Of a DNA stretch of 64,000 bases, positions 8,993 through 60,317 are shown piece by piece. Source of the DNA: Eledone cirrhosa. Lineage: Eukaryota. Every line of letters starts with the position of its first letter. Position 1 is the stretch's first letter. Both the position numbers and the translations under genes were made by a program. The notes under the pieces are model-generated. The model did no database searches and was not told where the DNA came from. It was given only the letters and a program-made list of their open reading frames with translations. The stretch lies in the NCBI GenBank assembly GCA_964016885.1, contig OZ024747.1, forward strand, positions 42,222,001 to 42,286,000, given 5' to 3'.

Positions 8993-9043
<51 letters not shown>

Positions 9044-9076
9044 ATGTGTGTGTATGTATGTGTGTATATATATATA

Positions 9077-10863
9077 GGAACAAGTAGGACCCTGACGGCT
9101 GAGCTCAAGCCGTTTCGACGGCTAATTCTGGACTAAATAAACATTTTTAGCCTGGTAAATGAATAGCCGAACTTCTCAGGGGGTAATTCCATATATGGTA
9201 AAAGTGATTGTCACAAGGATGGGTCAAAAGTTTGTTGTTAAGACATATGATTCTATCATGGCATTTTGTGGAAGGTAGGGGTAGCTGAACTTGCCAGTAG
9301 AAGAAAGAGGGAGAGGGAGTGGAGGAAACCCAGTCAAGCGTTGAAAGTGAAAAATACAGCAGATTCTAAGGATAGTGTATAGAAGGTCGAAAAAAGTACA
9401 CTAGAGAAGGGGGAGGGGAAGTTGAAACAATAAGTAAATCTAAAGGGAGTAAACAAAAAAGCCATTATAAAAATGAGGAAATATATAAACAATATATAAA
9501 AAAATATAAAAAACAATTTCTAGTTACTACTCCTCTTCCACAATCATCAAATCTCTCATTGGTACTGCTAAGCTATAGAAAAGTTTAATAGGTGGGAAGG
9601 AATACTAAATACGAGATTGTAGTGAAAGAATTTTATGAGGCCATCATTACAGGGGGTCTACCACCACTACTATATTTAGTAGTAATCAGCCAATGCTATC
9701 TTACAATGACAGGTCAATAAGTTGAGGACCAACATACTAAAAAAACTAATACGAAATATTAATTCAGAATCCCGAAACTAATACGAAATATTAATTCATA
9801 ATCCCGAAACATGAATACTAATACAATATATATAAAAGTACTGCTACAATACATAAATTCTAATACAATCTACATAATACTCATACAATATATATAAAAA
9901 AACTAATACAATATATATAAATACTGCTACAATACATACATTCTAATACAATCTACATAAATACTCGTACAATATATATGAAAAACTAATACCAAATATT
10001 AACCTGTCATTGTAAGATAGCTTTGGCTGATTACTACTAACTATCGTAGTGGTGGTAGACCCCCTGTAACGATGGCCTCATAAAATTCTTTCACTACAAT
10101 CTCGTATTTAGTATTCCTTTCCACCTATATATTTCCTCATTTTTATAATGGCTTTTTTGTTTACTCCCTTTAGATTTACTTATTGTTTCAACTTCCCCTC
10201 CCCCTTCTCTAGTGTACTTTTTTCGACCTTCTATACACTATCCTTAGAATCTGCTGTATTTTTCACTTTCAACGCTTGACTGGGTTTCCTCCACTCCCTC
10301 TCCCTCTTTCTTCTACTGGCAAGTTCAGCTACCCCTACCTTCCACAAAATGCCATGATAGAATCATATGTCTTAACAACAAACTTTTGACCAATCCTTGT
10401 GACAATCACTTTTACCATATATGGAATTACCCCCTGAGAAGTTCGGCTATTCATTAAACAAAAAAGCCATTATAAAAATGAGGAAATATATAAACAATAT
10501 ATAAAAAAATATAAAAAACAATTTCTAGTTACTACTCCTCTTCCACAATCATCAAATCTCTCATTGGTACTGCTAAGCTATAGAAAAGTTTAATAGGTGG
10601 GAAGGAATACTAAATACGAGATTGTAGTGAAAGAATTTTATGAGGTCATCATTACAGGGGGTCTACCACCACTACGATAGTTAGTAGTAATCAGCCAATG
10701 CTATCTTACATAAAAATGTTTATTTAGTCCAGAATTAGCCGTCGAAACGGCTTGAGCTCAGCCGTCGGGGTCCTACTTATTCCTATTACCCACTCTACTA
10801 CCCTAAGTATTGAGTACTTTGGTGCGTTATGGTCCATCTGGTTCCTTACCACACTTCCTTCGT
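9077..10863. mobile_element. Hammerhead-bearing non-coding element (Penelope pLTR/retrozyme-like) rearranged as a foldback between (TA)n tracts
   Basis: 10003-10455 is the reverse complement of parts of 9158-9714; 10456-10710 directly repeats 9451-9705; 10711-10783 is the reverse complement of 9077-9150. Related pieces at 39838-40090 and 40442-40577. Confidence 0.75.
9089..9184 (-). ncRNA. Type I hammerhead ribozyme motif with variant core (CUGAGAA)
   Basis: Minus strand reads cccc CUGAGAA G-uu-cggcua...uagccg-u-C GAAA CGGCU ugagcuc AGCCG UC aggg. Confidence 0.6.
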
Positions 10864-10890
10864 TATATATATATATATATATATATATAT

Positions 10891-31102: not shown

Positions 31103-31430
31103 AGTATCGGTAGAGAGTCGGACGCCATGCTTTCCAGCATAGTTACGTCCCTTTACGGTCTGAGTTCAAATAGCGCCGAGGTTCACTTTGTCTTTCATCC
31201 TTACGGGGTCGATAAAATAGAGTACCAGTAATACACTGGAATAATTGCTGGCCTTGTGCCAAAAAGTAGAAACAATTATTATTAATAAGCACTGTTACGT
31301 CCCTTTACGGACTGAGTTCAAATCCCGCCGAGGTTAACTTTGCCTTTCATCCTTACGGGGTCGATAAAATAAAGTACCAGTAATACACTGTGATAATTGC
31401 TGGCCTTGTGCCAAAAATAGAAACAATTAT
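31103..31430 (+). mobile_element. Tandem SINE units (one near-complete, one 5'-truncated)
   Basis: SINE body occurs twice. Confidence 0.85.
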
Positions 31431-31498
31431 TAATATTCGAAAAACTCAGATTACATTTATTGTATTCAGCCATGTAGAGCGAAATTTTCTTTTTATAT

Positions 31499-35904: not shown

Positions 35905-37740
35905 GTAGTTAGTGTCTTATATAATGTTATTTGTGTACATTTAGTGTCTTATATAGTGTTATTTGTGTACAGTTATACATTTAGTGTCTTATTTAGAGTT
36001 ATTTGCGTACAGTAATATATATTAGTGTCTTATTTAGTGTTATTTGTGTACAGTAATACATTTAGTCTCTTACTTAGTGTTATTTGTGTACAGTAATACA
36101 TTTAGTGTCTTATTTAGTGTTATTTGTGTACAGTAATACATTTAGCGTCTTATTTAGGTTTATTTGTGTACAGTAATACATTTAGTGTCTTATTTAGTGT
36201 TATTTGTGTACAGTAATACATTTAGTCTCTTATTTAGTGTTATTTGTGTACAGTAATACATTTAGTGTCATATTTAGTGTTATTTGTGTACAGTAATACA
36301 TTTAGTGTCTTATTTAGGTTTATTTGTGTACAGTAATACATTTAGTGTCCTATATAATGTTATTTGTGTACAGTAATACATTTAGTGTCTTATATAATGT
36401 TATTTGTGTACAGTAATACATTTAGTGTCTTATTTAGGTTTATTTGTGTACAGTAATACATTTAGTGTCCTATATAATGTTATTTGTGTACAGTAATACA
36501 TTTAGTGTCTTATATAATATTATTTGTGTACAGTAATACATTTAGTGTCTTATTTAGTATTATTTGTGTACAGTAATACATTTAGTGTCTTATATAATTT
36601 TATTTGAGTACAGTAATATATTTAGTGCCTTATATAATGTTATTTGTGTACAGTAATACATTTAGTGTCTTATTTAGTGTTATTTGTGTACAATTAGTGT
36701 CTTATATAATGTTATTGGTGTATAGTAATACATTTAGTGTTTTATATAGTGTTATTTGAGTACATTTAGTGTCTTATATAATGTTATGTGAGTACATTTA
36801 GTGTCTTATATAGTGCTATTTGTGTACAGTAATACATTTAGTGCCTTATATAATGTTATTTGAGTACATTTAGTGTCTTATATAATGTTATTTGTGTACA
36901 GTAATACATTTAGTGTCTTATATAGTCTTATTTGTCTACAGTAATACATTTAGTGGCTTTTTATAATGTTATTTGAGTACAGTAATAGATTTAGTGTCTT
37001 ATATAATGTTATTTGTGTACAGTAATACATTTAGTGTCTTATTTAGTGTTATTTGTGTACAGTAATACATTTAGTGTCCTATATAATGTTATTTGTCTAC
37101 AGTAATACATTTAGTGTCTTATTTAGTGTTATTTGTGTACAGTAATACATTTAGTGTCTTATATAATGTTATTTGTGTACAGTAATACATTTAGTGTCTT
37201 ATTTAGTGTTATTTGTGTACAGTAATACATTTAGTGTCTTATATAATGTTATTTGTGTACAGTAATACATTTAGTGTCTTATTTAGTGTTATTTGTGTAC
37301 ATTTAGTGTCTTATATAATGTTATTGGTGTACAGTAATACATTTAGTGTCTTATATAGTGTTATTTGAGTACATTTAGTGTCTTATATAATGTTATTTGA
37401 GTACATTTAGTGTCTTATATAGTGTTATTTGTGTACAGTAATACATTTAGTGCCTTATATAATGTTATTTGAGTACATTTAGTGTCTTATATAATGTTAT
37501 TTGTGTACAGTAATACATTTAGTGTCTTATATAATGTTATTTGTGTACAGTAATACATTTAGTGTCTTATATAATGTTATTTGTGTACAGTAATGCATTT
37601 AGTGTCTTATATAATGTTATTGATGTACAGTAATACATGTAGTGTCTTATTTAGTGTTATTTGTGTACAGTTACATTTAGTGTCTTATATAGTGTTATTT
37701 GTGTACAGTAATACATTTAGTGTCTTATATAATGTTATTT
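35905..37740. repeat. 40-bp tandem satellite (catttagtgtcttatttagtgttatttgtgtacagtaata) with 32-bp variants
   Basis: Period 40 is visible in the line layout; about 47 units. Confidence 0.95.
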
Positions 37741-39030: not shown

Positions 39031-39652
39031 ATACATTTTTACCAATATATATATATATATATCACAAGGAAATTACCTGGCATCCCACCACATCCTCTAC
39101 GGAATTACCTTAGGAACTTACCCACGGACATACAATAAACAACATTTTTTTTCCCACACGCTACCTACATCCACAATACGTATAAACACCACACACACGT
39201 GCGTACCACCACATATTTACACACTCAGCCTCCGGAATCCTCTCCTCCCCACACCTCTGACCCCTCCCCATCCACATACGCGCACACACACCGACCTACA
39301 CCCCCACCCCACACGCACCTTTTCCTGAACATGCAACCCCGTTCTTCCCCCAAATCTCACATTTACATACACACACACACACGCACACACACACACACGT
39401 ACACCTACACACACACATACCTTCAGCCCTCCCCGCTCGGACACCCCGCATCCCTCTCCACACTCCACCCGCCACCACCCCTACACGCCCCACACCCTTC
39501 CACCACTTGTTTTACTTCATGTTTATTTTTATTTTTATTATACTTTTGTATTTATTTTCATTTGTACCGTTTCCTCTCACCCCCTTTTTTCTAAATGTCT
39601 CTCCCCCACTCCCCTACACACCCTTGGAACTCTCTTCCCACACACTTTTCGC

Positions 39653-39680
39653 CTGAAGAAGGGCTTATGCCCGAAACGTC
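39653..39680 (+). ncRNA. Minimal hammerhead core of Penelope pLTR type, stem I not evident
   Basis: CUGAAGA a GGGC uuau GCCC GAAA C GUC within a (TA)n-bounded insert (39061-39772) that has a downstream AATAAA. Confidence 0.6.
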
Positions 39681-39767
39681 ATTCCCCACCACCACCCCAC
39701 TCTCAAGAGCGTGAAACTAATAAACCTTTGTTCGTACTGCCTCTCTGTTTTGTTCCCGTTCAATTTT

Positions 39768-39837
<70 letters not shown>

Positions 39838-39842
<5 letters not shown>

Positions 39843-40090
39843 ATCTTTGACGTCGACGGCGGAGCTCAAGCCGTTTCGACGGCTATTTCTGGACTAAATT
39901 AGAATTTTTAGCGTGGTAAATAAATAGCCGAACTTTTCAAGGGTTAATTCCTTATATGGGAAGATTGTAGTTGTCAAAAGGATTGGTCAAAATTTCTTGC
40001 AAACACAATTAAGTCTTTCAACAATGAGGGAGCGGGTGGAGCCGGTCAAGCGTTGAAAGTGAATTCTATACAGCAAATTCTAAGGATATA
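39838..40090 (-). mobile_element. Diverged copy of the 9.1-kb hammerhead element (core UUGAAAA)
   Basis: Homologous to 9085-9240 and 9333-9375; adjoins (TA)n. Confidence 0.7.
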
Positions 40091-40093
40091 TAT

Positions 40094-40432
40094 ATGCTAA
40101 GGATGGCTCTGAACATTAATCAGTATACACTGAGGATGAAAAACTCAGAGCTGTATGGGAGCCTCCCAAAATTCAGCTCAAAAGTGACACAGAGGAGACT
40201 GAGGTTGGCTGGACATGGCCACCGACATCCAGAGTTGACATTGCACTCAGTGCTCCTGTGGGAGCCCCTACATGGACACACTGGAAGAAGAAGACCAAGG
40301 TTAACGAATGTTGATGCCCTAAGGACAGACACTGGCCTGTTGGAGACGCAGGACATGGCAGCTATAATGAGGGGCAGAGACCGCTGGAGAGAACTCGTCC
40401 ATAGATCTCGGGAATTTTACCCGCCCTAGAAA
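40094..40432 (+). mobile_element. RTE LINE 3' fragment
   Basis: MLRMALNI...RRLRLAGH...GRRRPRLT...RDRWRELV. Confidence 0.75.
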
Positions 40433-40441
40433 ATATATATA

Positions 40442-40577
40442 TAACGAAGGAGGTGTGGTGAGGAACCAGATGGGCCATAACGCACCAGAGTACACAATAC
40501 TTAGGGTAGTAGAGTGGGTAATAGGAAATAGCCGTCGAAACGGCTTGAGCTCTGCCGTCGGGGTCAAACGCTTTCCT
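40442..40577. mobile_element. Fragment of the same hammerhead element: inverted tail joined to a plus-strand hammerhead 3' half
   Basis: 40442-40527 matches the reverse complement of 10780-10863, then gccgtcGAAACGGCttgagctctGCCGTCgggg. Confidence 0.7.
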
Positions 40578-40601
40578 ATATATATATATATATATAAATA
40601 C

Positions 40602-40694
<93 letters not shown>

Positions 40695-40728
40695 AATTCA
40701 GGAATTTTATATTCTTTGAATGAAAAGA

Positions 40729-40812
40729 ACCTTCTGACGAGAATCTTTCTTTGCAACGAAGGCCGTATGGTCTCCGTTTTATTTTTGGGATTCGAAACCG
40801 ATCGGTAAAGGT
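40729..40812 (+). ncRNA. Type I hammerhead ribozyme, intact consensus
   Basis: ACCUU CUGACGA GAAUCUU...GGGAUUC GAAA CCGAUCGG UA AAGGU: stems I, II and III and the core are all present; predicted cut after GUA at 40807. Confidence 0.88.
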
Positions 40813-41212
40813 AACTATAGTAGGTAAAGTCAATTTTTTAAAATTTATTTTGAAACTTTTTCATTATTTGCTAAACCTTGTTTATATTTGTTCTGGCTCG
40901 TTAATTTATTAACCCGCCATTGAACCACACTGGCATTTGGTTGGACAATACATGCGTACCTTGGCGCCTTGTGCGTGAAGGAACGTATATCCTATTACTA
41001 CTACCTCCACTAATGTTGAGAACAAATTTGGTCGTTCTGACTGCTGCTAGCAATAGCTGTGGCTAGTTTGACCTACCTTCCTTCTGCCTCTATCTTTGCT
41101 TCGGCCCTTGATAAACCTGTTTCTACATCATCCACTCTCATCCCAGGAACAGTTTTGATAGCGCTAGTTTGTGATTTAAATTCAGGAATTTTATATTCTT
41201 TGAATGAAAAGA

Positions 41213-41296
41213 ACCTTCTGACGAGAATCTTTCTTTGCAACGAAGGCCGTATGGTCTCCGTTTTATTTTTGGGATTCGAAACTGATCGGTAAAGGT
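41213..41296 (+). ncRNA. Type I hammerhead ribozyme, second copy
   Basis: Identical except stem III CUGAUCGG (U-G wobble); predicted cut after 41291. Confidence 0.85.
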
Positions 41297-41363
41297 AACT
41301 ATAGTAGGTAAAGTCAATTTTTTTAAATTTATTTTGAAACTTTTTCATTATTTGCTAAACCTT

Positions 41364-41427
<64 letters not shown>

Positions 41428-41428
<1 letters not shown>

Positions 41429-41527
41429 AAAATATTGTTATTCTCCATCGAGTGCTAAGCTGTATTCCGAATCTGCATTCGTTAGCTTAGCCGCAGCCAA
41501 AAGCTTCGTTAATGCTGTACTAAAATT

Positions 41528-41573
<46 letters not shown>

Positions 41574-41671
41574 AAAATATTGTTATTCTCCATCGAGTGC
41601 TAAGCTGCATTCCGAATCTGCATTCGTTAGCTTAGCCGCAGCCAAAAGCTTCGTTAATGCTGTACTAAAAT

Positions 41672-41674
<3 letters not shown>
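41428..41674. repeat. Two ~103-bp direct repeats separated and flanked by (TA)n
   Basis: 41428-41529 matches 41572-41674 with about one mismatch; internal hairpin gctaagct...agcttagc. Confidence 0.9.
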
Positions 41675-41703
<29 letters not shown>

Positions 41704-41745: not shown

Positions 41746-41973
41746 ATAAAACGGGTCCGCAATATCTGCTATTTCTCCCAATCTTCACGTTCGGTTACGC
41801 AACCCAACGTCCCATGTGAAATACACAGTATGGCCTAGTCTGCATCGGGCTATGGTATGCCACTTTAGCCAGATGCACACTGGGCCATACTGTGTATTTC
41901 ACGTGGGACGTTGGGGTTGCGTAACCGAACGTGAAGACTGTGAGAGATAGCAGTTATTGCGGACCCGTTTTAT
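41746..41973. repeat. Foldback/MITE-like hairpin with ~105-bp imperfect arms
   Basis: ataaaacgggtccgcaata... / ...tattgcggacccgttttat, short loop near 41850-41866. Confidence 0.9.
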
Positions 41974-45815: not shown

Positions 45816-46007
45816 AAAGACGTGATTTACTTTGCTCCGGATTTTTGCGGATTGTTGTAAAAAAGAACTGTGAGTTTATTGATCAATTTAATAACATTGT
45901 TTGGTTTAGCCCCTTGCCTTGGCCGTCAGACGTTAAGTCAACAAATTTTCGCCCCTTTCTGGGGCGAAATTTTCAATTTTCATCTAAAAACTGTAGACTT
46001 GGTGGCA

Positions 46008-47782
46008 ATGGATGCCATTTCCACCTCGCACACTGTCGTGAGTGCCACGCCCACTAAGAAAAGTGGTGGAGGGAAGGTAGGAGTACAAAGCTTGCAGCCG
46101 TCCCCCCTCGCATCATCGAAAAACGTGGAAAATATCGAAACCGCGAAACCAAATCCGGCAAATAATACCAGCACCAACAACAAGAACAATGACAACAACA
46201 CCACAACCAACAACTGCAACAACAGCAACACCAATATTACCAACAGTGACAGTAACACGAAAGACAACAACACCAAAACAACATTTGCACAGACCGTAAA
46301 AAAAAACGAACTATACACGCCAATAGACATAACAAATGCTAAACAACTATTACAAGACGCAAAACAATTCGTGACTTTTGGCGAAAACGGTGCTTTTAGC
46401 ATCAATTCTCCACAGGAATTACGTAGAGAGGCTGTCCTGAAAACTGTGGTTTTCAGGACAATATCGAACGTAACAAGAAAACCAGCTCAATTATCACAAA
46501 ATGAAATTGAGCTGGTTCTAAAAGACGCAATGAAGGACTTAACCTTTATACAAAAAGGTAAACTGTTTGGTAGCATTTCGGTGCTGATGAACAACCAGTC
46601 AACAGCTCAAAAGTACTCGATAGCACCCATTGTGTCCCCCCACTTCACCTTTTACCCCACATACAGGGGGAAAAGGACACAAAGAATAAAAATAATGAGT
46701 ATCACACCAAATGTAAACATTTGGTGGATACTATGTGGAATAATAAACTTTGATGAAGACAAGATAATTTCAATAGGAAAGTCCTCCGGAGGTGTATTTG
46801 GTGGGACCAGCGTAGAAGTTCTGGTGCAAATGAACCCAGAACGAATAGCGAATATCCCACAACGCGTGCCTCTGGACGGGCTAACTTATATAAACATTTC
46901 AGTGGAGGGAAGGCGGCCGTCATGTTACCACTGCTTAAGCAGGGGTCACCTGAGGGCTGCCTGTCCTCAATTAACGAGTAAAAAAAGAAAGAAAAAGACT
47001 CTTCTGCCAACCCCGAACACAACAACACAACCACCACCACCACCACCACAACAACACGGAAAAATAACAACACAAAACACTGTTCCACCCAACCCCTCCC
47101 CACCTAAAACAAATACAAAAGCAACCACAACAAAACCCCAAAATATATCCCTCCTCAACAACACGGAAGAGGACTCCGTATCAACGTCACCCAGTGACGA
47201 CGAGGGAGAACCCTTTCAACAGGTGAAAAGGAAAAAAAAAAGGCACCACATTAACAAAAATGCCACAAACACACAACCACCAGCACAAACAGAAGAAACA
47301 TCACAAATAAAAAACCCACCCCTCCCCAAAACATAACACGTACTATAAAACGCAAACACCCGCAAGAACAACAAACAAAAACAAACACAACACAATAAAA
47401 ACTCTATACATACATTAACAAGAACAATAAAACGTTGATGAAAGCGATAGAAAATAACCCTTCGGTGGAAACCGAAGGGATCACTTTCACCTACGCAGCG
47501 AACAAACCGCACCTAATGATGATTAAGGTCCCAACGGAAACCTATGTAACTTTGAAAAAGAACCATCCAATGCATGTGGGGACCAACTGCACCAAACCAC
47601 ATAACAGCGTCCTATTGAGATGTTTCCCCACCCCCACACCAGACACCCACACCCCACCAAACACCCTAATCCCACCACACACTGATGTCCTCACCCCACC
47701 ACAAACCACCACCCCACCAAACAACCTTTCCAACACCCCCATGGAAATTGTGCAGCCTGGTCCCCAGGAGACGAAGAGGTAA
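46008..47782 (+). pseudogene. Tx1 ORF1 (gag-like), disrupted near 47336-47435
   Basis: VEGRRPSCYHCLSRGHLRAACP zinc knuckle, Asn/Thr/Pro-rich linkers, FQQVKRKKK motif. Confidence 0.8.
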
Positions 47783-47824
47783 GTAATTTCCTTTCCTCTT
47801 CCTTTTTACCTCTTCAGCACCAAC

Positions 47825-50800
47825 ATGGCCAATATAAGAGTTGGATGTGTGAATGCACGCGGCTTGGGGATGTCCTGGAAACAGGGCAAACTCTTAAATG
47901 ACCTCACGTCGCACAGAGTGGATGTAATCGTTATTTGCGAGTCCAGGATAAGCAGCGAGCGCCAACTGGCCCCCATCTTCGACGACTTTGAGATCTACGC
48001 ATCTCTCTGTCAGCAGAGGGGTGGGGGTGGGGTTGTCGTTCTGCTGCGAAAATACCTGGGTCTTGCCACACAGAAGGTACACCTGGACCCGGAGGGTCGA
48101 CTGGTGGTTTTAGACGTCGGCAGTGGTGAAGGTGGAGCTTTCAGGCTGGTGGCAGCGTATGCCCCATCGGGGACACCGCGACCGGACTTCTTCCGACGCC
48201 TGGAGAATTTCCTGGGAAGGTCTCGCTCCTTGCTTTTAGTGGGGGACTGGAATGGTATCCTGGATGCACGTTGGGACTATGTAGGGGCATGTCCCGATAG
48301 AGGGGGTGTAACAGCCTCAAACGATTAATCGGCCGATTTGATCTGGCCGATAGATATCGACTGGATTTTCCGACTGTGCCACGGTGGACGTGGAGTAATC
48401 GCAGCGGAACATCCAGGTCGTACCTAGATAGGTTCCTAGTTAGAAATAAGGATAGGGACATATTAAGCTGTCCACGAATGTTCATGGTTGACTATTCGGA
48501 TCACAAGTTGTTGACCGGAGTGGTCAACCTTGATAGAACTCATAGACAGGGACCCGGTTACTGGAAGCTAAACTTGTCTTTACCGACAAACAAAGCTTAC
48601 AGTAAGCGGATTAGCACACTAGTTAAGAAGCGTTTGACAGGGGCAATTGTCAACAACAGGTGGTGGGGATCTCTCAAGAGAGAAATTAAAATAGAATCCA
48701 TAGGTTTTAGTCGGGAATTAGCATCAGGTAGGAATAGAACTGAAAGGGAATTAACAAATAGAGTAGAAGAGGCGATTAGGAGTGGCAACGTGGCCGGCGT
48801 GCTGGCGTCAAGAACGGCCCTAGACCAGTTCTTTGATGCGAAGCACGAGGGCTGCGTTGTCAGGAGTAAAATACGTGCTCTGGGTAACGAGGGAGCCAAA
48901 GCTGTTAGCTGGGCCCGAGTGACAGAGGCAAAAAGTGGAAACAAGTCCACGATTCGGTCTTTGAAGGACCAGGATGGACGCGTGATCCTTGAACCTGTAC
49001 GGATGAGCGCGGCCTTTCAACGGCGCTTTGCACGACTGTTCGGGAGGGGCGGCGGGCCGGGTGGGGCCATGGATTTCGGTCCATACCTCGACGGTCTGGC
49101 GCGGCTCTCGGACGAGGAGGCGAAGTCCTGCGAGAGGCCGATTTCAGCCGCTGAAATAGGGGAAGCGCTGAGCCAATGCAGCAAACGCAGATCTCCGGGT
49201 CTCGATGGTCTACCATACGAACTTTATGTAGCGATGCCGGGCTTGTTCTCCGGTCTCCTCGAGGCGGTCTACTGCAACTGGCAACAGAACGGGAGAATTC
49301 CCAGTTCTGTGACCAAGGGCGTAGTCACGCTGGTGAGGAAGGACGAGAACAAGGGGGATGACATAGATAACTTCAGGCCCATAACTCTGCTAAACACAGA
49401 GTTAAAGATTTTGGCGAAGGTGTTAGCGAAGAGGTTGGCGCTTGTCGTCGGGAACCTGGTGGGAGAAGCGCAGACATGCGCAATCCCGTCCAGGTCCATA
49501 CACGACAACCTCCACCTCATGCGATACATCGTAGAGAGGGTAGGGAACGAACCCGGCTTTGGTGGGGCCCTGATCAACTTGGATCAATCTAAAGCGTTCG
49601 ATAGGGTTGACCATCGGTACCTGGATGCGGTGCTCGCGGCGTCAGGCTTCGGACCCGTTTTCAGGGGCTGGATTGCTGCAATGCACAGCAGCAACACCTG
49701 CTCGAGGGTCAAGGTGAACGGCTACCTCTCGGAGCCGTTCCAAATCACGCGATCCATTCGACAGGGATGCCCTCTCTCCTCCCTCCTGTATGTGCTGGCT
49801 CTCGAGCCACTACTGAGGAAGCTGGAGCTGTTGCAGGGCATCCCCTTGGAACCGCGATTGCGGAAAGCGGTGTCGGCCTACGCCGATGACGTGACACTAA
49901 TGGTGTCGTGCGCCTCGGAATTCGGACAGATCGGCACCTTACTGGAGGAATATGAAAGGTTCAGAGGAGCCAAGCTGAACCGGGATAAGTCCGTCGGTTT
50001 GCAACTCGGGACGTGGAGGGTCAAAACGATGCCCTCCGACGGCATCGTCGGATGCTGGACGGAGGGACCGGTGAAGCTGCTCGGGGTCTGGTTCGGACCG
50101 GACATCCAGGTGGAGAAAAACTGGGACGAGGTAACGGGCAAGGTGTTTGCACTCGCCCAGAAGTGGGCCGAGTGCAAACTATCCCTGAAAAGTCGAGCGG
50201 AGGTGGCGAACGCTTATATAGCGTTCGTCATCTACTACCGCTTGACCGTCGTGTCTTGCCCAGAGAAAACACTCGCCAAAATGGAGCGCGCGCTCTTCCG
50301 ATTTCTTTGGAAGAAGCGGGCTCCTTTGGTGAGAAGATCCATCTGCTGTCAACACCCTTCGAACGGAGGGCTGGGGATGCCGTGGCTGACGATGCGTAGA
50401 CACGCATTAAGGCTACGGCACCTCCAGGTATTCCTCACCGGTCAGCCGGTGTGGGCCCTGTTTGTGAGGCGAGCCTTTCCGAGACTCGTCTCACTCACCG
50501 AGCTGCAATCCTGGGTCAAGCAAAGACCGAGAAAAGTGGGCGACTGGCACATTGAATGTGCCCAGGCGCTCACGGCCCTCTGGCAAGCGGATCCGGCAAT
50601 CAGTGGAGACTCAACCTCAACATTCTATAGAGGGTTGGTTCGCAGTAAGTGCGACGACGCTCTCGGAGAGGCTCTGGGCATGGAGGAAGACGAGCTGGCC
50701 AGTCTGTTCGGTAGGACGTTTGGCCCGGGACCGATGGACAACTTCCAAAAGTCCCTGGCTTGGCAATGTTACCGAGGAGCTCTACCCGTTCGGGACAAGC

Positions 50801-51261
50801 TCTACAGACACGGGCGCCCGGGTAGGGACCCCTCGAAGAAGATCTGTCCAAGATGCGTGCGTGACGAGGAAACCGTCGCACACGCATTCGTACACTGCCC
50901 GGGCGTTGCTGACCTGTGGGGCTATGTAGAACGACTACTATCGCGGGTGGGACCAATCCGGTTGACCACCGAGAACATTGTCACAATCAAACCGCCTCCC
51001 CCTTTCAAAAACGAAGGAGAGGCGGTTTTCCTCTGTGTGATAGCCATGGCGAAAGAAGTTGTATGGTGGACAGGGTTGAAAGGGCTGAGGTCAGACACCT
51101 ATCTCTCCGGCCAACAACTGGTCTTTTTTTTCAAGTACCACTTTAGAAGAAGGATCAGAATGGAGAGAGAGGTGCTCTACCCCAGCAAGTTTTATGAAAG
51201 ATGGGTGAAAGTAGCGAGAATGGCCCGAGTGAATGGGCCTTCTCTCTATATCAGCCTGTAG
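47825..51261 (+). pseudogene. Tx1 ORF2 (AP endonuclease plus reverse transcriptase), one frameshift near 48310
   Basis: VGCVNARGL, GDWN, SYLDRFL, SDH, GYWKLN, NFRPITLLN, QGCPLS, YADD, CPRC...ETVAHAFVHC. Confidence 0.93.
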
Positions 51262-59411: not shown

Positions 59412-59493
59412 ATATATATATGTATATATAAAAAGAAAATTTCGCTCTACATGGCTGAATACAATAAATGTAATCTGAGTTTTTCGAATATTA

Positions 59494-60317
59494 ATAATTG
59501 TTTCTATTTTTGGCACAAGGCCAGCAATTATCACAGTGTATTACTGGTACTTTATTTTATCGACCCCGTAAGGATGAAAGGCAAAGTTAACCTCGGCGGG
59601 ATTTGAACTCAGTCCGTAAAGGGACGTAACAGTGCTTATTAATAATAATTGCTTCTACTTTTTGGCACAAGGCCAGCAATTATTCCAGTGTATTACTGGT
59701 ACTTTATTTTATCGACCCCGTAAGGATGAAAGGCAAAGTTAACCTCGGCGGGATTTGAACTCAGTCCGTAAAGGGACGTAACAGTGCTTATTAATAATAA
59801 TTGCTTCTACTTTTTGGCACAAGGCCAGCAATTATTCCAGTGTATTACTGGTACTTTATTTTATCGACCCCGTAAGGATGAAAGGCAAAGTTAACCTCGG
59901 CAAGATTTGATCTCAGTCAGTAAAGGGACGTAACTGTGCTACAAAGCATGGCGTCCGACCCTCTACCGATACTGCCAATCCACATTGGCTTCTTATATAG
60001 GCACAAGGCCAGTGATTTTGGGGGAGGGGAAAGTCGATTAAATCGACCCCAGTGCGTGACTGGTACTTTATTTTATCGACCCCATGAGGATGAAAGGCAA
60101 AGTTAACCTCGGCGGGATTTGAACTCAGTCCGTAAAGGGACGTAACTGTGCTTATTAATAATAATTGTTTCTACTTTTGGCACAAGGCCAGCAATTATCC
60201 CAGTATAATAATATTAATAATTGTTTCTACTTTTGGCACAAGGCCAGCAATTACCCAGTGCATTACTGGTACTTTATTTTATCGACCCCGTAAGGATGAA
60301 AGGCAAAGTTAACCTCT
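59494..60317 (-). mobile_element. Tandem SINE array (about 6 units or fragments)
   Basis: Repeated reverse-complement SINE bodies about 150 bp apart. Confidence 0.85.

Follow-up and report, generated by a model that had tools for sequence, protein, structure and literature searches.

The locus summarized in Table 1 is best explained, with a probability of about 0.6, as one copy of a multi-copy, noncoding repeat of 484 nucleotides. This repeat would be a nonautonomous Penelope-like element, that is, an animal non-LTR retrozyme, with a helper acting in trans. The anatomy of the locus, its multi-copy state, a head-to-tail unit in a second organism, and a hammerhead-bearing repeat that is better conserved than the spacer are direct observations. 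The element is real, is probably young, and belongs to a class that has already been described. All positions refer to the 64-kb stretch of DNA that was analyzed, which is called the window.

Table 1. Features of the element and its flanks, in window coordinates.
Feature	Position	Strand	Basis or remark
Left (TA)n tract (target site)	40577..40691	.	TRF period 2, 57.5 copies, 94% pure
Repeat 1, upstream pseudo-LTR (5'-truncated partial unit)	40690..40887	+	2-nt AT microhomology at 5' junction
Type I hammerhead 1	40729..40812	+	Predicted cut after 40807; descriptor scan and folding
Predicted hairpin, cut site to repeat 3' end	40808..40879	+	Stem I 3' strand can pair into its base
Internal TATAT	40883..40887	+	Copy 2 passes into the (TA)n target at this point
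Spacer, 286 nt, noncoding, part of the multi-copy unit	40888..41173	+	ORF, Pfam, and read evidence
Predicted cut-to-cut monomer, 484 nt, 38% GC	40808..41291	+	Cut-site positions
Repeat 2, downstream pseudo-LTR, 3' end of insertion	41174..41371	+	Repeat alignment
Type I hammerhead 2	41213..41296	+	Predicted cut after 41291; stem III U.G from C>T at 41283
Right (TA)n tract (target site)	41367..41426	.	TRF 30 copies, 100% pure

The insertion consists of repeat, spacer, and repeat, a partial tandem of 1.4 units and not the two tandem units of the original prediction. The same prediction placed direct repeats of about 198 bp at a distance of 484 nt, and this holds: the repeats are 198 nt long with a period of 484, are about 99% identical, and differ at two positions (C at 40799 versus T at 41283, and A at 40840 versus T at 41324). 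Two complete hammerheads lie within the 1.4 units; TRF finds no period-484 array in the window, and the 64 kb contain no second copy of the unit. The claims of a noncoding spacer and of (TA)n on both sides were also correct. The longest stop-free stretch in the unit, read circularly, is 83 amino acids, and the unit has no Pfam match among 58 translated pieces of the window (55 of the 84 filtered ORFs in the 30- to 56-kb region, from 413 ORFs in the window, and three added pieces). Pfam detects an L1/Tx1-type endonuclease and reverse transcriptase at 47.8 to 51.3 kb as the only domains in these 58 pieces, which contain no GIY-YIG domain. At the 5' junction, AT is all that matches the internal sequence, which is how a 5' truncation would look. 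The 3' junction coincides exactly with the internal TATAT, and the insertion ends 75 to 80 nt beyond the second predicted cut site. The partial tandem, this 3' end, and the (TA)n flanks support the Penelope-type anatomy and TA target that had been proposed. A pol III-transcribed SINE was considered and dropped: the unit has neither an A or B box nor AATAAA, and it contains seven runs of at least four T residues. No tRNA gene was found in the window.

Each repeat contains a complete type I hammerhead, as was originally claimed, with the CUGANGA, GAAA, and NUH core elements intact, three helices, and helix I open. Stem I of hammerhead 1 pairs 40729-40733 with 40808-40812 (5 bp), and the core comprises CUGACGA (40734-40740), GAAA (40794-40797), and GUA (40805-40807). 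Stem II pairs 40741-40747 with 40787-40793 (7 bp, including two G.U pairs) and is capped by a 39-nt apical insert with its own hairpin. Stem III has 3 bp and a 4-nt loop inside a 10-nt palindrome. Hammerhead 2 is hammerhead 1 displaced by 484 nt, and the GUA cleavage sites predicted to end at 40807 and 41291 match in position in both copies. The predicted palindromic stem III is perfect in copy 1 but not in copy 2, which has a U.G pair at 41283. A descriptor scan of both strands of the 64 kb identifies these two hammerhead sites only, and none of 200 composition-matched (Markov-1) random windows matches at the observed stem strength (4 of 200 do so at relaxed strength). The Rfam search suggested with the original prediction returned no match at the gathering score, and its 27 matches at E<=10 include no hammerhead, likely because stem II carries the 39-nt insert.

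Predicted folding gives a mixed picture of how these RNAs might act. The whole stem II domain has a z-score of -2.65, and 2 of 200 shuffles fold as well. The hairpin between the cut site and the end of the repeat is not significant alone (z -1.56, 14 of 200 shuffles), and its inner 10-bp stem has a probability of 0.79 to 0.98 in the circular fold. In the minimum-energy folds of single hammerheads, the core is misfolded with stem III, and a z-score signal is absent. For the repeat-spacer-repeat RNA, a double hammerhead (-158.0 kcal/mol) is predicted to be 9 kcal/mol more stable than two single hammerheads (-148.9 kcal/mol), but a free domain-swapped fold (-165.0 kcal/mol) is lower than either active form, and the dimer stem III helix has a probability of about 0.015 at equilibrium. 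Stem I reaches a probability of 0.55 to 0.8 only as long as the growing transcript stops shortly after the first hammerhead, at which stage the monomeric stem III is mostly unformed. On these models, hammerhead cleavage at this locus is plausible; the two hammerheads would likely act as a pair, possibly with the assistance of a protein.

Reads or contigs from four of the 13 public runs listed for the sequence (X1, X5, X6, and X11) were aligned to positions 40400 to 41700 at 80% likeness; there is no RNA run among the 13, and X7 to X10 have small shares of the sequence. X1 consists of contigs from organism A and may be the window's own sample, and X11 consists of raw DNA reads from organism A in another study. 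X11 is a RAD library biased by restriction sites, and the alignment depths are not copy numbers. In X1 and X11 alike, substitutions and indels of intermediate frequency are numerous in the repeat as well as in the spacer, which indicates a polymorphic multi-copy family that includes the spacer. This bears out the family reading. A solo unit that was duplicated locally was rejected as an explanation, because both junctions recur in further copies and in other organisms. In X11, the depth of both repeats summed is about 1.6 times that of the spacer, a ratio in the range expected for repeat-spacer-repeat elements or short tandems and not the many-fold excess expected for the ends of a long element. 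The depth of X1 contigs is about 110k at 40840-40927 and about 4k at 41016-41103, a roughly 30-fold difference, and therefore there may be longer-tailed copies, or a larger family that has in common the part just past the hammerhead. A T>A change at 40888, which lengthens the internal TATAT, is present in 159 of 217 X11 raw reads and in 56 contigs of X1. In the region 40981-40990, seven X1 contigs diverge from the unit beyond 40981 into a short loose end that resembles TA/CA, beside a second internal TATAT. This site is a possible second 3' terminus, some 100 nt beyond the first, and would correspond to a Penelope 'tail'.

The unit, or part of it, also occurs in two other organisms. In X5 (organism B), a 513-nt contig covers 40840-41353 with 21 substitutions and three gaps. 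Its length equals a 483-nt unit plus 30 nt, the length by which the ends overlap when a loop closes in a graph of 31-mers, and therefore the unit is also head-to-tail in organism B; the value of 31 follows the word size of the search tool and that of Logan. The graph loop fits tandem DNA and a 1.4-mer with trimmed tips equally well. The hammerhead-bearing repeat is better conserved than the spacer, because the X5 substitutions concentrate in the spacer (18-19 in 286 nt, versus 2-3 in the 198-nt repeat; Fisher p 0.002-0.012). Of the 21 substitutions, 20 can be seen, with 18 falling in the spacer and 2 in the repeat, and the range of p reflects placement of the remaining one on either side. In X6 (organism C), a single 241-nt contig crosses the repeat-spacer junction with three differences.

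The variants in the reads also touch the hammerheads themselves. Among the best-supported 40 substitutions of 209, none hits the catalytic core. Frequent G>A variants at 41272 (stem II) and at 40870 and 41307 (downstream hairpin) are each predicted to replace G.U with A-U, but this support for the structures is weak, because the changes are one-sided and G>A is common (33 of 201 variant places in X11). Position 41283, which is T in copy 2 of the window, is C in 113 of 123 X11 reads. X11 also contains hammerhead variants at 41241-41307 and 40757-40823 that look linked and suggest a second subfamily; among them is a single extra base in loop III (82 of 130 reads at 41285), which makes the palindrome odd. 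Pile-ups of X11 read ends stem from a DNA library and were set aside; of the five shown within the unit, three are at or near TTAA, and none is at a hammerhead cut site.

We infer every RNA and protein step of the cycle that would produce such a locus. A head-to-tail master locus would be transcribed through its hammerheads, and a trans-acting Penelope reverse transcriptase/GIY-YIG endonuclease would nick (TA)n DNA. Reverse transcription would begin inside the RNA, 75 to 80 nt downstream of the cut site, at the UA-rich base of the hairpin, where UA/TA pairing probably aids the start. Copying would then traverse one full unit and halt 0.4 unit into the next, which yields repeat, spacer, and repeat. 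The template would most likely be uncut multimeric RNA. The hammerheads would likely cut best when paired through the palindromic stem III; the product would be a 484-nt monomer, which a ligase of the host could join into a circle. That such a circle exists as an RNA species is conceivable but somewhat against the odds, and its use as the template for transposition is doubtful. Judged by the (TA)n target, the helper would likeliest belong to the Neptune clade.

Part of this scheme follows from the geometry of the insertion. Because the insertion ends 75 to 80 nt past the second cut site, a released linear monomer cannot be the template, and with the linear cut-to-cut monomer excluded, the template is either a circle or uncut RNA. 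The geometry is no proof of a circle, because on uncut RNA the Penelope enzyme of a lizard starts 85 to 92 nt past its hammerhead. This enzyme, the Anolis protein PAc, is described in PMC11167929 as nicking AT-rich DNA and starting inside the RNA, 111 to 118 nt into the ORF; the hammerhead cut is at +26, and subtraction gives the distance of 85 to 92 nt. According to the same account, the template is mainly uncut RNA, cleavage is not required, the hammerhead cuts only with protein, and the start site is not homologous to the target. Because of this parallel, uncut RNA would be the likelier template of the 484-nt element as well. As reported there, the enzyme needs no homology to its target, which counts against a need for UA/TA pairing of the kind that we infer.

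Animal non-LTR retrozymes, as described by Cervera and de la Pena (2020, PMC7229834), comprise repeats of 150 to 450 bp with type I hammerheads and yield circles in coral, mussel, and axolotl; most loop-contact bases are reported to be absent from those of mussel. Li, Clavereau and Pollet (2026, bioRxiv 10.64898/2026.07.22.740005) report families of 51 to 972 bp in 35 genomes, mostly vertebrate, with cleavage in one of nine Xenopus dimers tested, and they derive animal retrozymes from Penelope pseudo-LTRs and define them as nonautonomous Penelope-like elements. By that account, 'retrozyme' and 'nonautonomous Penelope' are not alternatives. Further background on the class is provided in PMC6765202, a review that covers work by Lunse et al. 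on dimer cleavage, and in PMC7761336. Like the retrozymes described in these sources, the element has a noncoding head-to-tail unit with one type I hammerhead per unit, a GC content below 50% (38%), multiple copies, a palindromic stem III that is weak and lends itself to cleavage as a dimer, and a proposed Penelope helper. Its unit of 484 nt exceeds the range given in PMC7229834 but is within that of the 2026 preprint. In contrast to the described retrozymes, it is a 1.4-mer and not an array, and its helices I and II have 5 and 7 bp with a 39-nt apical insert, versus the canonical 6 and 4 bp. Circles are known for the described retrozymes and are hypothetical here.

The hammerheads of Penelope pseudo-LTRs, as presented by Cervera and de la Pena (2014, PMC4209133) and in PMC11167929, share the partial-tandem layout, the sizes of helices I and II (4-5 and 7-8 bp in PMC4209133, where a circle model is also proposed), a palindromic helix III, a 3' end about 80 nt past the cut site, and an AT-rich target. 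The 484-nt element differs from them in having no reverse transcriptase/GIY-YIG ORF, in its stem III, which is a 10-nt palindrome (3 bp as a monomer) and longer than the 1-2 bp described, and in lacking an extra nucleotide between the core and stem II. Partial tandems and (TA)n targets, both hallmarks of Penelope elements, are described together with tails and nonautonomous members by Craig et al. (2021, PMC8557442). Among the elements covered in that paper, MRC1 of Chlamydomonas is likewise noncoding and forms pseudo-LTRs, and in the (TA)n-targeting Neptune and Naiad clades, the microsatellite target likewise conceals any target-site duplication. Naiads and most Chlamys elements, as characterized there, are without canonical hammerheads, unlike the present element. 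The plant LTR retrozyme, with a type III hammerhead, PBS and PPT, and a 4-bp target duplication, is not a match for a type I hammerhead with microsatellite flanks. On its anatomy, the element appears to belong to the class of animal retrozymes, and the helix sizes fit those of Penelope hammerheads and not the canonical retrozyme ones. What is peculiar to it is modest, namely an insert in stem II, a palindrome of greater length, and a comparatively long unit.

The most serious alternative, although a rather unlikely one, is the mechanism of the original prediction, a circle-templated retrozyme, in which double cleavage releases the 484-nt monomer, a ligase of the host closes it, and copying by the helper's reverse transcriptase is primed at +75-80 of the circle and proceeds for 1.4 rounds. 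The circle model proposed in PMC4209133 predicts products of more than unit length that extend across the cut site, and circles are abundant for the retrozymes of coral, mussel, and axolotl according to PMC7229834. The predicted circular fold of the monomer is also better than all 100 of its shuffles (z -2.7), and because stem I is unformed in this fold (p 0.0), a circle would be shielded from being cut again. However, uncut tandem RNA accounts for the same geometry, hammerhead mutants are reported in PMC11167929 to be without effect on insertion in vitro, the helices are of the Penelope type and not the canonical 6-bp/4-bp retrozyme type, and the linear monomer fold reaches only z -1.84 (4 of 100 shuffles), with a modest 60% of its bases paired. 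A fuller version of this scenario is unlikely: that the locus records rolling-circle reverse transcription of a 484-nt circular RNA, with a retrozyme family in related species of an apparently octopus-like lineage that has no reported one, an enlarged hammerhead that is locked off in the circle, and an internal UA motif at the base of the hairpin that primes insertion into TA.

Two further explanations would do without mobilization of the 484-nt unit as RNA. The locus might be the dead remnant of an autonomous Penelope-like element that suffered an internal deletion and was never mobilized as a 484-nt unit, with hammerheads that are its pseudo-LTR ribozymes. The Penelope-type helix sizes and the roughly 30-fold drop in X1 depth from the end of the repeat to the middle of the spacer are consistent with such an origin, but the middle of the spacer is polymorphic at many positions in both X1 and X11, the 483-nt unit closes as a loop in organism B, and the spacer shows no coding remnant, so that we consider a remnant improbable. 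Alternately, a hammerhead satellite might have spread by duplication or recombination at the DNA level. The birth of satellites from Penelope ends by unequal crossover is discussed by Li et al. (bioRxiv 10.64898/2026.07.22.740005), and the repeats are 99% identical; however, a lone 1.4-mer with sharp ends in (TA)n, a 3' end at TATAT, and no second copy in 64 kb fits an insertion better than an array, which makes a satellite very improbable. The nonautonomous Penelope-like element copied from uncut RNA is the reading that we prefer.

Several other repeats are located in the window. An element end at about 39430-39771 contains a minimal hammerhead core (39653-39680, + strand; CUGAAGA, a 4- to 5-bp stem II, and GAAAC-GUC) that is followed by AATAAA and (TA)33, and in which stem I is not evident. 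This sequence, 1 kb upstream of the 484-nt element and unrelated to it, resembles the 3' terminus of a different Penelope-type element, which would point to Penelope-type activity at nearby TA tracts. A different TA-flanked family is present at 40433-40579, 39840-40090, 8999-9420, and 10200-10874, and it is far deeper than the 484-nt element in X1 and X11. Its copies at 9-10.9 kb form an inverted pair and contain GAAA, a 4-bp stem with a palindromic loop, and GUC, a stretch that resembles a hammerhead's 3' half but has no neighboring CUGANGA. Another short TA-targeted repeat is a 103-nt unit that occurs twice (41427-41529 and 41572-41674; period 145, 99%), each time between (TA)n tracts, and that is polymorphic in the reads. 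A 228-nt imperfect palindrome (41746-41973, 89%) is MITE-like, and its Rfam microRNA matches are far below the gathering score. A near-intact L1/Tx1-type element occupies 45861-51261 (+ strand), with a first ORF of 491 amino acids for which no homolog was found at E<=0.001, followed by an endonuclease and a 986-amino-acid reverse transcriptase/zf-RVT frame. A dispersed, SINE-like repeat of 152 nt accounts for 35 BLAST hits in the window (at 59492-59940, 31136-31432, and elsewhere) and is partly arranged in head-to-tail dimers and trimers; it presumably resembles octopus repeats, and we take the repeat landscape to be octopus-like. Protein searches on the host lineage gave no hit or, as best matches, reverse transcriptases of 44-60% identity. 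A 40-bp minisatellite with 46.7 copies is found at 35936-37740.

In O. vulgaris, 31 recently active Penelope-like families are reported (PMC13282606), and the words 'hammerhead' and 'ribozyme' do not appear in the main text of that paper. No cephalopod retrozyme is described among the literature matches listed; the supplement of PMC7229834, which covers additional invertebrate retrozymes, those of the 2026 preprint, or Repbase or Dfam could hold one. A scan of metagenome contigs with the hammerhead pattern gave no match at first, and four matches from a later scan were discarded as chance (62-66% GC, with no similarity beyond a 21-nt motif). The same kind of scan of viral contigs gave no match.

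The element bears on two open questions: the reason that hammerheads persist in Penelope-like elements, and whether the circles of retrozymes are genuine intermediates of transposition. Proposals for the template conflict, with circles favored in PMC4209133 and PMC7229834 and uncut RNA found in vitro in PMC11167929, as these sources describe them. A short, sharply bounded, young 1.4-mer with a conserved hammerhead is a convenient substrate for testing them. If the locus does record a rolling-circle event, it would be a compact natural substrate with which to decide between circles and uncut tandems for Penelope-type enzymes. The element would extend retrozymes to another invertebrate lineage and leave the picture of the class unchanged.
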